IMG/VR virus record: IMGVR_UViG_3300045988_153472
Reading direction: 5' to 3' (one strand)
DNA from: a virus
DNA length: 64,000 bases
Part shown: positions 40,697 to 44,467 of the stretch, in pieces
Position numbering within the stretch: position 1 is the first letter of the stretch
Layout of the letters: each line of letters opens with the position of its first letter
Program-made: the position numbers and the translations under genes
The notes under the pieces: generated by a model
What the model saw: only the letters and a program-made list of their open reading frames with translations
Databases searched by the model: none
What the model was told of the DNA's origin: nothing

Positions 40697-41170
40697 CTAC
40701 TCCATAAATGATGAAACATGTACAGTTACAAAATCGCTATGTGCACGAATATAATCCAAAGTTTTAACTGTATCTTCTACAATTGCAATCTGAGATGGCT
40801 TAAGTCCGAGCTTTTGTTGCAGCGTTTGAAGCACAGTAAGTTTTTCTGTCTTTTCTAAAGTGAAATAGATATTATCATCTGGCAGATCATAATTGTCTTT
40901 TATAAAAGCTCTTTTACCAGGAATTTCATTTAAAGGACTCTTTGAACAGGTATATACTTTATTCACGCCTTTCTTCTGAATAAACTCCTGTATTAATTTG
41001 ATCGGACGCACATCTTTATACGGATTCTCACCGGAAGCTACAAGTCTGTCCCATTCATCGTCAGTCATACTATGACTTAATTCAGAAAACTCATACGGAG
41101 CAAGTACTCCATCTACATCCATTACTACAATCACATCATCTTTTAATAAATAATCTGTAATTTTACTCAT
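40697..41170 (-). CDS. Small HAD-superfamily phosphatase (NT5C-like)
   Basis: Motif I VVMDVDGVL (DxDG) near the N-terminus; size about 157 aa. Confidence 0.4.
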   Translation of the reverse strand: MSKITDYLLKDDVIVVMDVDGVLAPYEFSELSHSMTDDEWDRLVASGENPYKDVRPIKLIQEFIQKKGVNKVYTCSKSPLNEIPGKRAFIKDNYDLPDDNIYFTLEKTEKLTVLQTLQQKLGLKPSQIAIVEDTVKTLDYIRAHSDFVTVHVSSFME

Positions 41171-42638
41171 CTTTGTTTCTTCCGTTTAATCTGTCTCTGA
41201 TTTCTTTAAATATTTCTGTATGATATATTTCACCGTCTTTAAATACAGTTTTTAATGCCCCATCATAAACAAAGCTGTCATATCCATCTCTGCACCTTAA
41301 TTCTCCATTTTCATCGTAATATACATGACAACATCCTTTATGAGATTTCTTTAAATGGCTTACATCTGTCTTTGGATCTTTGTAAATCATAATCGGTTGT
41401 CCGTTAACTTCTCCAAATGTAGCTTTCATAGCAATGCCGAACATATCTCTGGTTACAACGACCATACGTCCATCAGGTTCTACAACTGCCGAGAAACAAA
41501 AAGCCCCAACTCCAAATACAATGTTGTTTGCAGCGAATCCTTTCTTCTCAAGTTCTTCCCATACCTTTTTTACATTGTTAAGAGTACAGCCATCACCATA
41601 GATAATTCCAATATGAGGGTCCAGTACTTTGTAACCTTTGCTATTTACTGATCCTTCAAATGTATTCCAGAGTTTTTCGATAGTCTTAACTGAAATCTCT
41701 ACCATATCACCAGAATCCGGACGAACCAAGAGCTTACCATTGTGCTGCATAATTTCTTTTTTGCAAGCTGGAAGAATATTGTCAATCATGTTCCAGTAAT
41801 CATATGTATCAGATACCATGCTGAAAGATGCATTCGGATATAATTCTGTAAGTAGTCTTTTCACAAATGTAATTTCGTCTCCGTCCACAGCATAATTTGA
41901 AGCCATGACCGCATGTTCGGTAGAAATCGCACCAATTCCAATATGACTCACGCTACAGTCATTGAAATAATATTTGTCCAAATAATCAATTGCCGGGATC
42001 GTACTTGTCTTATCAAAGGATAATAGCCAAGCAACGGAGCATCTCTCTGCTTCTTCCATACAGGACATTCCACGCATTCCAAAGTCTGAGCAGGCCATTT
42101 CAGGTCTTAAAATGTCGTCGCAGGTCTTTTTATAGTAGAAATTTGCCAGTTCTCTGTACATATGTCCAATTGTTGCATGAGCACACGGCTTCCAAAGCTC
42201 AACCTGCAGAATACACTCAATCCACTGCACAACCCATGCAAAATCTGGATGTGTATTCGTGATTTCAATGCATGGCACTCCCATAGGCACTAATGTACCT
42301 TCCGGTAATGCACGGATCTGAATCGGAAGATACCCTAATTCGTGAAGTTTAAGGATTGGAGAAATATCGTAATTTCCTTCTCCTAACTGAATGTCCATAC
42401 TAATTGTATAAAGTTCTTGAACTTCATCAGTGCTTAATTTAAAGAAATCTCTTTTAAAATATGTAATAAGATATTCTTTAATAAAAGCCTGCAGTCCGAA
42501 GAAAACCATATGATCCTGCTCCTTTAACATTGATCTTCTCGGAGTCCAATAAGAGACTAACTTCGTCAATCCTCTCGGAAACATATTGTGGTGTACTTGT
42601 TTGTAAGTATCGCTTAACAGAATTGCTAAGGTATCCAT
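41163..42638 (-). CDS. Nicotinamide phosphoribosyltransferase family protein (Nampt/NadV, or the NARP1 Namat-type enzyme)
   Basis: 491 aa. N-terminus ILLSDTYKQVHHNMFPRG matches Nampt LATDSYKVTHYKQYPP. Confidence 0.7.
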   Translation of the reverse strand: MDTLAILLSDTYKQVHHNMFPRGLTKLVSYWTPRRSMLKEQDHMVFFGLQAFIKEYLITYFKRDFFKLSTDEVQELYTISMDIQLGEGNYDISPILKLHELGYLPIQIRALPEGTLVPMGVPCIEITNTHPDFAWVVQWIECILQVELWKPCAHATIGHMYRELANFYYKKTCDDILRPEMACSDFGMRGMSCMEEAERCSVAWLLSFDKTSTIPAIDYLDKYYFNDCSVSHIGIGAISTEHAVMASNYAVDGDEITFVKRLLTELYPNASFSMVSDTYDYWNMIDNILPACKKEIMQHNGKLLVRPDSGDMVEISVKTIEKLWNTFEGSVNSKGYKVLDPHIGIIYGDGCTLNNVKKVWEELEKKGFAANNIVFGVGAFCFSAVVEPDGRMVVVTRDMFGIAMKATFGEVNGQPIMIYKDPKTDVSHLKKSHKGCCHVYYDENGELRCRDGYDSFVYDGALKTVFKDGEIYHTEIFKEIRDRLNGRNKDE

Positions 42639-42962
42639 TATTTTTTATCCTCCTCTTTGTCGTTTACAACTTTATCAATCTGATCAGTAATGTAATCAAT
42701 AACATCCTTGCCGGTTTTCCCAATTGCTTGAACATTGTCCGATGTTAGTTCATTTGCAACCATCATTGTATAAACGGTTTCGGTAGTTGGTGTAAGAACT
42801 GTTAAAATTACAGAAATAATCCCAATTGAAATAAATAACTTGAATCCATTCTTTGTTAAATCATCAAATCCTATCAAACATATTGCAAATGCAGCTACTG
42901 CAACAATCAGAAATAAAGTCCCCACTGCATCTGCTCTACTTGCAAAATAAATCAACCAAGGA

Positions 42963-43331
42963 CTAATAATTGGTTCCATACTTTCTCATCTCCTTTATAA
43001 TTTTATCAACTTCATATTCTCTTAAAATATCATCCACATCTTCTATATGAGAATATCTATTAGAGTGTCTATATGTAGCAATTTCATAAGCCATTGATTC
43101 AATCACGTCTTGTAAGCTTAGAAGTCTATCTTCCCATTTGTATGTTTCTGTACGGTAATCTGGTAATTCTCTTAATGGACATAATTTAGGAATCGTTGAA
43201 TGTTCTTTCCTTTTTAAGGAATTAATGTATTTATTTAATAATTGGCAATAATATCCATACGTTTCTAATTCTGAAAATGGGCATTCGTCACATGAATTAG
43301 GTTCTTCTATAGATAACATAACTTTACTCAT
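42963..43331 (-). CDS. Small Cys-motif protein (tandem paralog 1)
   Basis: MSK-led; SCDECPF ... CPLRELPD. Confidence 0.4.
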   Translation of the reverse strand: MSKVMLSIEEPNSCDECPFSELETYGYYCQLLNKYINSLKRKEHSTIPKLCPLRELPDYRTETYKWEDRLLSLQDVIESMAYEIATYRHSNRYSHIEDVDDILREYEVDKIIKEMRKYGTNY

Positions 43332-43611
43332 TATTATCTTCTCCTGTAATTTCTCTCAAACAATCATTCCAACCAATCTTGTAGCTAGGCATTTTTCCAT
43401 TGCTTTGAAAATACTCTCTTCCGTACACTCCTGTTAATTTCATTTTATCCGGCAATGGATTCAAAGGACATCCTTTCATTAACTCATCCCACGAATCACC
43501 AGCATTGAAATTTGCATTAGCATCTTGTACTGTGCATTCATCTGCATCGTTTAATAGCGGACAACGTATACATTTCTCTGGCGTATCAATCACTAATACT
43601 GATTTACTCAT
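43324..43611 (-). CDS. Small Cys-motif protein (tandem paralog 2)
   Basis: MSK-led; KCIRCPLL ... GCPLNPLPD. Shares the C-x-x-CP ... CPL..LPD pattern with the neighbour. Confidence 0.4.
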   Translation of the reverse strand: MSKSVLVIDTPEKCIRCPLLNDADECTVQDANANFNAGDSWDELMKGCPLNPLPDKMKLTGVYGREYFQSNGKMPSYKIGWNDCLREITGEDNNE

Positions 43612-43663
43612 TTTCTTCTCTTACCTCTTTTCTGCAAGAATGCTGCGTGTGTACAGGACTGAT

Positions 43664-44467
43664 TCATCTAAATCTCTCAACCAATTCAATCTTAGGACTT
43701 TCCAGATTTGTCAAAATCGTATCTGTCGTATAAATCTTCTCTATCAGTCCATTGTTTTTCAGAAGCTCTCCATCATAAACAGTGTTTTCACAATGAGTAA
43801 CATAAAGATAAATCTTACCTACACCGGCCTCTTTCAGCTTTTTAGCACTGTGATAAAAAGTTCCGCCTTTACTACAAATATCGTCTACAATAAGGATATC
43901 TTTACCTGGCAGTTGATTAATTTCACCTGATAAATCTAAACCTTTAATTTCTCCGGTCTCCCAATCTCTATTCTTAATACCGAAAGCATATGGAAGATGT
44001 ACTGCTGAAGAATATCTTTTCATAGATCCTGCATCCGGATAAAACATCATAAGATTATCACTAGCAATCTTCTTGACAGTATCCTCAATCATTCGATTCG
44101 GGGATCCTACATGTACTTTATTAAATAATGCAGCAGATACATCAGAATGTGGATCTAAAACTTCTACTTTTCCAAAATGTAATGAATTAATAGTCTGAGC
44201 AAAATATTTTAAAGTAAATAATTCGTTCTCATGCTTAACTCGGTCCATACGTGCATCTGGGATATAAGGCATATATAAATTAGGCACTACTCTATGGTCC
44301 CAACAATATCTAGTAATATATTCAACTGCTGTTAACTCTTCCATTGATTCAAAGAACCATTCAATATTATCTCTGCACCATCCTCCAATAGGAGGAATAT
44401 CCTTAAATAAGAATGTTCCATCCGGATATTTATCAAGTTTGATTTCTACACCGTTTAATTTAATCAT
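43664..44467 (-). CDS. Ribose-phosphate pyrophosphokinase (Prs)-family enzyme; candidate ADPR-PP synthetase
   Basis: KVEVLDPHSD (Prs DLH motif), YPDAGSMKRYSSAV, and DILIVDDICSKGGTF (PRPP-binding loop). Shorter than canonical Prs. Confidence 0.65.
   Translation of the reverse strand: MIKLNGVEIKLDKYPDGTFLFKDIPPIGGWCRDNIEWFFESMEELTAVEYITRYCWDHRVVPNLYMPYIPDARMDRVKHENELFTLKYFAQTINSLHFGKVEVLDPHSDVSAALFNKVHVGSPNRMIEDTVKKIASDNLMMFYPDAGSMKRYSSAVHLPYAFGIKNRDWETGEIKGLDLSGEINQLPGKDILIVDDICSKGGTFYHSAKKLKEAGVGKIYLYVTHCENTVYDGELLKNNGLIEKIYTTDTILTNLESPKIELVERFR

Follow-up and report, generated by a model that had tools for sequence, protein, structure and literature searches.

A candidate deamidating branch of NARP1-type NAD+ reconstitution encoded in a phage genome

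How a phage might restore nicotinamide adenine dinucleotide (NAD+) is the question raised by IMG/VR virus record IMGVR_UViG_3300045988_153472, of which 64 kb of phage DNA were analysed (the window, to which absences of genes from this phage refer throughout). Depleting NAD+ is among the major anti-phage strategies, and the commonest counter-measure known to us is NARP1. NARP1 combines two enzymes, Adps and Namat, and was described in phages SpβL1, Bas63, FADO and ICP1 (Osterman et al., 10.1101/2024.02.11.579819; structures in PMC12774641 and PMC13586617). An earlier note, written from the sequence alone, had picked out two open reading frames (ORFs), 41163-42638 (491 amino acids, aa) and 43664-44467 (267 aa), as a Nampt-like and a Prs-like gene, a candidate for such a pair that would make NAD+ directly from nicotinamide. 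Both ORFs are present, on the minus strand. The answer somewhat favoured here is that the block at 38627-45559, in which they lie, is a NARP1-derived NAD+ reconstitution operon that would work through the deamidated branch, with nicotinate in place of nicotinamide.

Two NARP1 lineages and an altered base pocket

The gene at 41163-42638 carries the Nampt signature that had been read in it (PF18127 NAMPT_N, 5.5e-10; PF04095 NAPRTase, 1.5e-28), and it also matches phrog_448 (3e-161) and the NCBIfam family NF006629 (458 bits, cut-off 405). Its best match among solved structures is 9w5x, the SpβL1 Namat crystal sequence (3.2e-110, 372 bits), ahead of human Nampt structures (about 1e-55, 188-191 bits) and Xanthomonas Nampt (6e-43). 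Identity is 43% to SpβL1 Namat, 29% to human Nampt and 28% to NadV-type proteins (ValKK3, cyanophage B23), and models of the PncB family score 24-25 bits (TIGR01513 and NF009131, cut-offs 297-330; TIGR01513, 24 against 297). A wide tree was built from the best 150 HMMER matches among 1.84 billion cluster representatives, with three Nampt outgroups. In this tree the clade that holds the window transferase, called non-acidic here after its residue 215 in SpβL1 numbering, is monophyletic in 37 of 40 bootstraps; it branches from within the Namat radiation, and the point tree puts the Nampt outgroups outside. In a smaller sample, five non-acidic and about 50 canonical representatives together exclude the three Nampt outgroups in 100 of 100 bootstraps. 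In a first neighbour-joining tree the non-acidic (Ser-type) clade and canonical Namat as a whole had come out as sister groups; this topology was set aside as a sampling artefact, since wider sampling nests the clade within Namat.

The partner gene at 43664-44467 matches PF14572, Pribosyl_synth (28.2 bits, cut-off 27), and phrog_619 (2.4e-68), and falls under every NCBIfam Prs cut-off (TIGR01251, for example, 90.7 against 113). As the earlier note had it, the protein is shorter than bacterial Prs (267 against about 315 aa) and contains the loop for phosphoribosyl pyrophosphate (PRPP), DDICSKGGT; the "DLH" motif also named there instead reads DPH (LDPHSD). Over its full length it is 41% identical to SpβL1 Adps, an enzyme with biochemical characterisation (E=3e-55), against 28% to E. 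coli Prs (E=5e-16). In 90 of 100 bootstraps the Adps sequences all group together to the exclusion of two Prs outgroups, and the window type is nested among canonical Adps. Residues important in the ICP1 Adps structures (PMC13586617), namely R87, H121, D161, K185, D212 and D213, correspond to R73, H107, D145, K165, D195 and D196 in the window; the active-site lysine SpβL1 K162, the equivalent of ICP1 K185, is likewise kept as K165, and ICP1 F92 is conserved neither here nor in SpβL1 Adps. Osterman et al. looked for a Namat homologue within 10 genes of Adps, and here the transferase stands four genes downstream on the same strand. By its sequence the Prs-like protein is a true member of the Adps lineage, with ADP-ribose (ADPR) as its predicted substrate.

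These placements bear on a housekeeping explanation, in which a true Prs and a NadV/Nampt enzyme would raise the supply of PRPP and of nicotinamide mononucleotide (NMN) and would have no anti-defence role. The Pfam and PHROG names would suit it, as would NAD-consuming phage enzymes such as NAD-dependent DNA ligase. It is nevertheless highly improbable, given a transferase closer to Namat than to NadV and nested in the Namat radiation, a Prs-like protein that fails the Prs cut-offs and groups with Adps, and close transferase relatives that lie almost exclusively on phage or prophage contigs. The phylogenetic check proposed in the earlier note therefore came out on the side of the Adps and Namat lineages, not of housekeeping Prs or NadV/Nampt. 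Capture of the transferase from the host as a cellular gene was also considered and rejected, as 70%-identical homologues on contigs of 240-260 kb stand in phage-like neighbourhoods with the same module.

The module thus resembles NARP1 in having both enzymes in the same two clades, in the same order and on the same strand, close together and with their catalytic residues kept, and in being a phage or prophage module whose presumed input is ADPR from NAD-degrading (NADase) defences and whose presumed output is NAD+. The transferase core in particular is intact (D10, Y12, F186, R189, H242, R306 and D308, matching SpβL1 D13, Y15, F189, R192, the catalytic His, R306 and D308).

The base pocket, however, differs from that of NARP1 at three positions. 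SpβL1 D215 (human Nampt D219) is S212 in the window transferase, G213 (human G217) is K210, and A242 (human A244) is S239; the alignment around S212 is ungapped and well anchored (F-D-K-T-S-T-I-P in the window, F-T-G-T-D-T-I-P in SpβL1). Across the non-acidic clade position 215 is S, A or V, and the changes A242 to S and G213 to K or N co-vary. Co-variation is almost perfect among the best 150 representatives, of which about 99 have the triad G213/D215/A242 and 44-49 have (K/N)213/(S/A)215/S242. In SpβL1 Namat, D215 hydrogen-bonds nicotinamide, and the D215A substitution lowers activity about 8-fold (PMC12774641). Human Nampt Asp219 reads the amide, and human NaPRT has a serine, Ser214, at this position (PMC4442680). 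Mutations at human Nampt G217 and A244 block inhibitor binding (PMC4919578), and table 2 of the same source, citing Khan et al. 2006, records D219S as a substrate-preference switch. The window transferase has, at the residue that separates nicotinamide from nicotinate enzymes, the same Asp to Ser change as the D219S entry of that table and as human NaPRT (PMC4919578, PMC4442680). It differs from human D219S in that the change is natural, is accompanied by two further pocket substitutions, and occurs in a lineage of the type that uses ADPR pyrophosphate (ADPR-PP).

A further departure from NARP1 lies in the adenine clamp. The SCH motif reported as defining Namat is G-S-X-Φ-X-Φ-X-Φ-T-R-D; the window clamp reads G378-A-F-C-F-S-[AVVEPDGRMV]-V-V-T-R-D398 and fails this signature. 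Its 10-aa insertion, shown in brackets, falls exactly at the second adenine-stacking aromatic position (SpβL1 Y396); position 3 retains its Phe, and position 7 has lost its aromatic residue. In the SCL clamp, SpβL1 R40 is M37 in the window, where Namat would have Arg, Lys or Tyr, although this position is variable among canonical loci too. SpβL1 S190 and S391 are replaced by G and A, respectively.

The clamp is also a site of other insertions in the family. In three canonical Namat representatives (P0180, P0189 and P0224), intein-like insertions of about 280-290 aa (...C...SHN) split the SCH motif, sitting exactly between GS(F/Y) and TYQ. Many others of the family, at 550-900 aa, align with the query in 2-4 separate stretches. 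Inteins seem to be frequent in the Namat family and aimed at the clamp.

Linkage of nicotinamidase and NadE to the transferase

The earlier note recognised the pair correctly and overlooked three other NAD-pathway genes of the same co-directional block, a PncA-type nicotinamidase, a Macro-domain protein and NadE. Every gene in 38627-45559 lies on the minus strand, with tight packing and several overlaps of 1-8 nt. PncA (44984-45559, minus strand, 191 aa) has the isochorismatase fold (PF00857, 1e-23), and among solved structures it comes closest to 1im5, the pyrazinamidase/nicotinamidase of P. horikoshii (7.8e-15). Catalytic D17, K105/K106 and C141 and metal-site D58, H60 and H77 are all conserved; the aligned P. 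horikoshii residues are D10, C133, D52, H54 and H71, and the catalytic and metal roles are those that we take the 1im5 structure to assign. NadE (38627-39772, minus strand, 381 aa) matches PF02540 (1.7e-48) and TIGR00552 (7e-48, 163 bits, cut-off 63.65) and has an SGGVDS P-loop at residue 33. Its best solved relatives are all NH3-dependent (2e18, 3fiu), and domain scans found no CN-hydrolase (glutaminase) domain in it. The NadE domain proper (residues 1-242) is followed by a C-terminal extension of 139 aa (residues 243-381) confined to 14 "long NadE" loci; a homologue search with the extension found none outside these loci and none elsewhere in the window.

The association of these genes with the transferase was surveyed in loci collected through the window protein (65) and through an SpβL1-led alignment (80, canonical Namat), from species genomes (seven loci) and from one deposited phage record. 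Flanks of up to 10 kb were taken, and a neighbour was counted only where at least 6 kb of flank was available on the relevant side. Classed by residue 215, 64 loci are non-acidic (S/A) and 71 acidic (D/E, canonical Namat). Adps is present throughout both classes (55/55 non-acidic, 58/58 acidic). PncA, in contrast, accompanies 54 of 55 non-acidic loci against 0 of 58 acidic ones, and NadE 47 of 47 against 0 of 53. The HAD-like gene described below is found in 27/47 and 0/53, a NadM-like NMN adenylyltransferase (NMNAT) in 20/47 and 0/53, and the Macro gene in 37/47 and 8/53. The linkage of PncA and NadE persists to about 50% identity, also in bacterial contigs and contigs of metagenome-assembled genomes (MAGs). 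A representative with Val215 has a compact Macro-PncA-Adps-transferase-NadE operon, whereas in a control that has Asp215 and a somewhat longer clamp Adps is present and both PncA and NadE are missing.

Eight "mixed" representatives of the 150 combine a non-acidic pocket with the canonical short clamp GSYTYQYNTRD, and these lie at the base of the non-acidic clade. Gene context was obtained for five; four of them have Adps, PncA, transferase and NadE with no NMNAT, and the fifth contig is too short. It appears that the base pocket switched in a single Namat lineage, which also gained PncA and NadE, and that the sub-lineage containing the window transferase later gained the clamp insertion.

These results tell against ordinary NARP1 as the function of the block, that is, Adps making ADPR-PP and the transferase joining it directly to nicotinamide to give NAD+, with PncA and NadE as unrelated neighbours or a separate host-type salvage pathway. 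Both core genes are indeed homologous to validated enzymes with an intact catalytic core, and the window has no NMNAT. Yet the amide-binding Asp, whose loss costs SpβL1 Namat most of an order of magnitude in activity, and two more pocket residues are lost clade-wide; PncA would destroy the nicotinamide substrate; and PncA and NadE are near-constant companions of the window-type module and are found in none of the 53-58 canonical loci. Ordinary NARP1 is accordingly judged improbable, and the published two-enzyme nicotinamide route, to which the earlier note had assigned the pair, does not hold up against the altered pocket and clamp and the linked PncA and NadE.

A mixed-type module was also seen in what may be bacterial DNA. 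In locus L161 (the contig of P0135), an Adps-PncA-transferase-NadE module at 128-7329 lies in an apparent bacterial chromosome, with a weak NrtR winged-helix match upstream and a methyl-accepting chemotaxis gene adjoining on the opposite strand. NrtR regulates NAD genes in response to ADPR, and, judging from this locus, the pathway may also serve as a regulated bacterial salvage operon.

A predicted route through nicotinate and the choice of donor

In the route proposed for the block, PncA would hydrolyse nicotinamide, released by NADase defences, to nicotinate and NH3, and the Adps-lineage enzyme would convert ADPR and ATP to ADPR-PP and AMP. The Namat-derived transferase would then join nicotinate and ADPR-PP to give nicotinate adenine dinucleotide (NaAD) and pyrophosphate (PPi), with no adenylyltransferase required, and NadE would convert NaAD, NH3 and ATP to NAD+, AMP and PPi. 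Net input would be ADPR, nicotinamide and two ATP, and the ammonia from the PncA step would balance that used by NadE. Compared with NARP1, the transferase is predicted to make NaAD and not NAD+, the obligatory steps number four instead of two, and one extra ATP is spent. Nicotinate is the likely substrate of the transferase, because the pocket change coincides with a nicotinate-making PncA and with a NadE that is sensible only after a nicotinate-containing intermediate. As donor, ADPR-PP is mildly preferred over PRPP, because an intact Adps is universal, the early-branching members have a canonical clamp, a Macro gene is present, and the window and most lineages have no adenylyltransferase.

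The Macro-domain protein (39765-40307, minus strand, 180 aa) matches phrog_335, "phosphatase" (7e-37), with no Pfam Macro match at E<=0.01. It shows 28-33% identity (E 1e-15 to 6e-21) with Macro genes that canonical NARP1 loci carry between Adps and Namat or directly beside them, and its phage homologues are annotated as Poa1p-like or ADP-ribose 1''-phosphate phosphatase. For Adpp of NARP1-AP, the Adps-Adpp-Namat system of Vibrio phage Gary, ADPR-1''-phosphate phosphatase activity has been demonstrated (10.64898/2026.01.28.702374). The window block may resemble NARP1-AP in holding a putative Poa1p-like Macro protein, homologous to the NARP1-adjacent Macro genes; it differs in that this gene lies three genes downstream of the transferase and not within two, at the modest identity given above. 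By this homology the protein is a candidate Adpp-like phosphatase, and it would probably turn ADPR-1''-phosphate into extra ADPR for Adps. Such a gene is sensible only with ADPR as substrate, which favours the ADPR-based donor.

Some relatives carry, within the NAD block, a Tpt1/KptA RNA 2'-phosphotransferase and a YAcAr (SLOG) protein (L007:11958-12497 and 13415-13840). Tpt1 consumes NAD+ and yields ADPR cyclic phosphate, and it would be a second substrate source for the Macro protein.

The absence of an NMNAT from the window, as stated in the earlier note, was confirmed. Pfam scans of essentially all other ORFs gave no PF01467, and a phmmer --max search with three NMNAT seeds against all six translated frames yielded a single match, at E=7.7. 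The same note had held that discovery of an NMN adenylyltransferase elsewhere in the phage would count against its proposal; none is in the window, and about 40% of sibling loci do have a NadM beside NadE. In about 28 sibling loci a short NadE (253-270 aa) is followed by an 86-aa ORF and then by a NadM-type nucleotidyltransferase that starts GRFQTFHKGH (PF01467, 3.3e-11). The window and 13 other loci have instead the long NadE (379-382 aa) and no NMNAT, and none of the 14 long-NadE contigs (up to 250 kb) is among the 80 best NadM-like matches in IMG/VR, a scan that reaches close relatives only. In one NadM-bearing sibling, L007, the transferase is 100% identical to that of the window, while NadE (the short NadE, 86-aa ORF and NadM region being L007:14524-16095, to be compared with window 38627-39772) is just 56% identical; because of this disparity the difference looks like a recombinational cassette swap. 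NadM-like genes occur at two further positions (L048/L049 and L154), three in all, and are absent from the deep-branching lineages and from the four mixed loci.

These NMNAT genes are the main reason to consider a PRPP-based phage Preiss-Handler pathway. In it, PncA would supply nicotinate, the Prs-like enzyme PRPP and the transferase nicotinate mononucleotide (NaMN), which NadM (in the siblings) or host NadD (here) and then NadE would carry to NAD+; a Francisella-style variant, with NaMN converted to NMN by NadE and NMN to NAD+ by NadM, is possible. The NadM-like gene about 200 nt downstream of short NadE in 20 of 47 loci, one with the 100% identical transferase, and its two other positions speak for such a pathway, as does the NCBIfam family name "nicotinate phosphoribosyltransferase". 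The Francisella protein 3fiu, which we take to be an NMN synthetase, is among the two closest solved relatives of NadE. SpβL1 Namat keeps PRPP activity, as do its clamp double mutants (PMC12774641), and the window clamp is heavily altered; moreover, pncB-nadD-nadE clusters are annotated in gut jumbo phages (PMC11662467). The pathway is hard to reconcile, however, with a Prs-like gene nested in the Adps clade, SpβL1 Adps giving no product from the Prs substrate, and the PRPP-dependent NARP2 phages need and carry no Prs of their own, unlike the constant Adps here (10.1101/2024.02.11.579819). It gives no role to the Macro/Adpp-like gene, it meets no NMNAT in the window, the deep-branching lineages or the four mixed loci with a canonical clamp, and a constant Prs and NadE with an only occasional adenylyltransferase would be hard to explain. 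The PRPP-based pathway is thus unlikely.

Set beside the classical Preiss-Handler pathway (PncA, PncB, NadD, NadE), the route proposed here shares the deamidated branch, with PncA first and NadE last; it differs in a transferase that is Namat-derived and not of the PncB family, in the presence of Adps, and in having no NadD/NMNAT in the window or in many lineages. With NARP2 (NadV and NatV of KVP40) it shares a transferase of the Nampt superfamily, and some siblings of the window phage have an NMNAT; unlike NARP2, its transferase lies outside the NadV/Nampt clade and has a non-acidic pocket, Adps, PncA and NadE are present, and the window has no NMNAT. NARP3 (PnuC and NadR; PMC13464706) was rejected as a counterpart, its genes being different.

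Several points weigh against the deamidating, ADPR-PP-dependent route. Each substrate in it is predicted from homology and gene linkage, and only 64 kb of the phage is visible. The pocket switch has a single origin, so that its association with PncA and NadE is one event kept across lineages diverged to about 40-50% identity, and one locus (L157) has no detectable PncA within 10 kb of upstream flank. The clamp of the window sub-branch is the most derived of the clade and could mean a weaker preference for ADPR-PP. The route would spend one ATP more than NARP1 for no evident gain. Finally, NadM in 20 of 47 loci, at three positions, suggests a role for a mononucleotide, NaMN or NMN, in some of these phages. 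It could come from a PRPP side-reaction giving NaMN, from the PRPP-based Preiss-Handler pathway, or, as NMN, from the phage NAD-dependent DNA ligase (51031-53067); these three sources are inseparable by sequence, and the PRPP route is for that reason kept as a serious rival.

Neither NadE nor nicotinamidase, nicotinate or deamidation was found in the NARP papers searched, full-text searches included, and the route is undescribed in them; further papers may exist. Whether nicotinate and ADPR-PP give NaAD and PPi in such a previously undescribed reaction, as part of a widespread, ammonia-neutral, four-enzyme deamidating NARP1 of gut phages and some bacteria, is an evenly balanced question. If so, this would be a biochemically distinct second branch of NARP1, making up about 30% of the nearest 150 family clusters and frequent among gut phages whose hosts are Clostridia. 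From it follow a predicted new enzyme activity and a three-residue rule (213/215/242) separating nicotinamide-type from nicotinate-type transferases, by which many "Nampt" and "nicotinate phosphoribosyltransferase" annotations would be corrected. Possible reasons for a detour costing an extra ATP are fast host deamidation, an irreversible pull, and evasion of defences that target nicotinamide or NAD+-type intermediates.

Other genes of the block and the window

The HAD-like protein (40697-41170, minus strand, 157 aa) has the DxDG motif VMDVDGVL and a weak NCBIfam HAD-IA match (1.6e-5); against solved structures nothing was found under E=0.89. In many relatives it is fused in frame to the transferase (646-aa P0002-P0012), one such fusion cluster holding 2406 member sequences, and because of these fusions it is considered to be functionally tied to the transferase. 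At the junction (window 41163-41170), the two overlapping ORFs and the fusion differ by a 1-nt indel in an A-run (GGAAGAAAC against GGAGAAAC). Next to it, a 147-aa coiled-coil protein with a C-terminal Cys cluster (40276-40719, minus strand) gave Pfam matches at chance level only, and its gene is kept by close relatives.

Between the two core enzymes lie three small ORFs, as the earlier note had described, all on the minus strand; they are variable, and most related loci are without them. Directly upstream of the transferase, a 113-aa two-helix membrane protein (42638-42979; phrog_3878, 2.7e-11) has two hydrophobic segments, with hydropathy peaks at about residues 17-40 and 45-63, and is kept in close relatives. 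The two accessory Cys-motif ORFs, of 122 aa (42963-43331) and 95 aa (43324-43611), are weak paralogues (33% identity over the N-terminal 58 residues, E=4e-6), both with CxxC and CPL..LPD motifs. The 122-aa ORF has no family match in Pfam or PHROG, and the 95-aa ORF is found in just a few related loci. Between PncA and Adps, a 153-aa ORF (44521-44982, minus strand) has no Pfam, PHROG or NCBIfam match; it is not core, being confined to the closest relatives, and other lineages hold different genes at that position. In siblings the interval between PncA and Adps holds a 368-aa adenylosuccinate-synthetase-like gene (L007:7320-8426; PF00709, 1.8e-38) that is absent from the window and could be a PurZ-type enzyme for 2-aminoadenine DNA. 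A scan of 38000-47500 for promoters and terminators gave counts at chance level.

The window is phage-like, with 34% GC, one dominant coding strand, and genes for a DNA polymerase III alpha subunit, a DnaB-like helicase, ribonucleotide reductase, integrases, TerD and RNA repair. In a search for near-identical DNA, 38600-45600 had no match among INPHARED phages. As close relatives there are gut viral contigs from IMG/VR, 50-250 kb long; one relative is a Ruminococcus sp. AM36-2AA scaffold, and others are Lachnospiraceae and Acutalibacteraceae MAGs. Because of these, the host is probably a gut Clostridium-class bacterium. On the plus strand, the sole convincing genes are those for a tyrosine integrase and an IS110-family transposase (515-1777 and 58000-59352), the latter adjoining a HicA toxin-like ORF (59455-59643, minus strand). 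This points to an insertion sequence carried by the phage and to a temperate lifestyle, in keeping with a 76%-identical copy in a Ruminococcus scaffold (L152).

Elsewhere in the window, NAD/ADPR-linked and RNA-repair genes are found at 30474-30920, 51031-53067, 24717-26015, 36124-37158 and 49351-50280. The set comprises a NADAR domain protein, the DNA ligase already mentioned (LigA-type, with BRCT; 51031-53067), an RNA ligase, an RlaP-type nucleotidyltransferase and an AAA_33 kinase-HD protein. Genes for Rnl1- or Rnl2-type RNA ligases also occur repeatedly in or next to canonical and nicotinate-type modules on unrelated contigs (L163:7494-8435, L169:6663-7976 and L167:3729-4805), and NAD+ rebuilding and RNA repair may travel jointly as a counter-defence island.

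A membrane- and stress-type cluster (28924-29895 and 31326-36121), unusual for a phage, encodes PspA/IM30-like, TerD-domain and vWA-TerF-like proteins and an 873-aa P-type cation ATPase, with an SPFH/Band 7 protein further upstream. Directly downstream of NadE lie two ORFs (37646-38029 and 38029-38424) which, with two others (62151-62918 and 63468-63944), share the almost identical N-terminus (M)KIR(K/R/N)GFVTNSSSSS(F/Y)I and then diverge, forming a paralogous family with no Pfam match.

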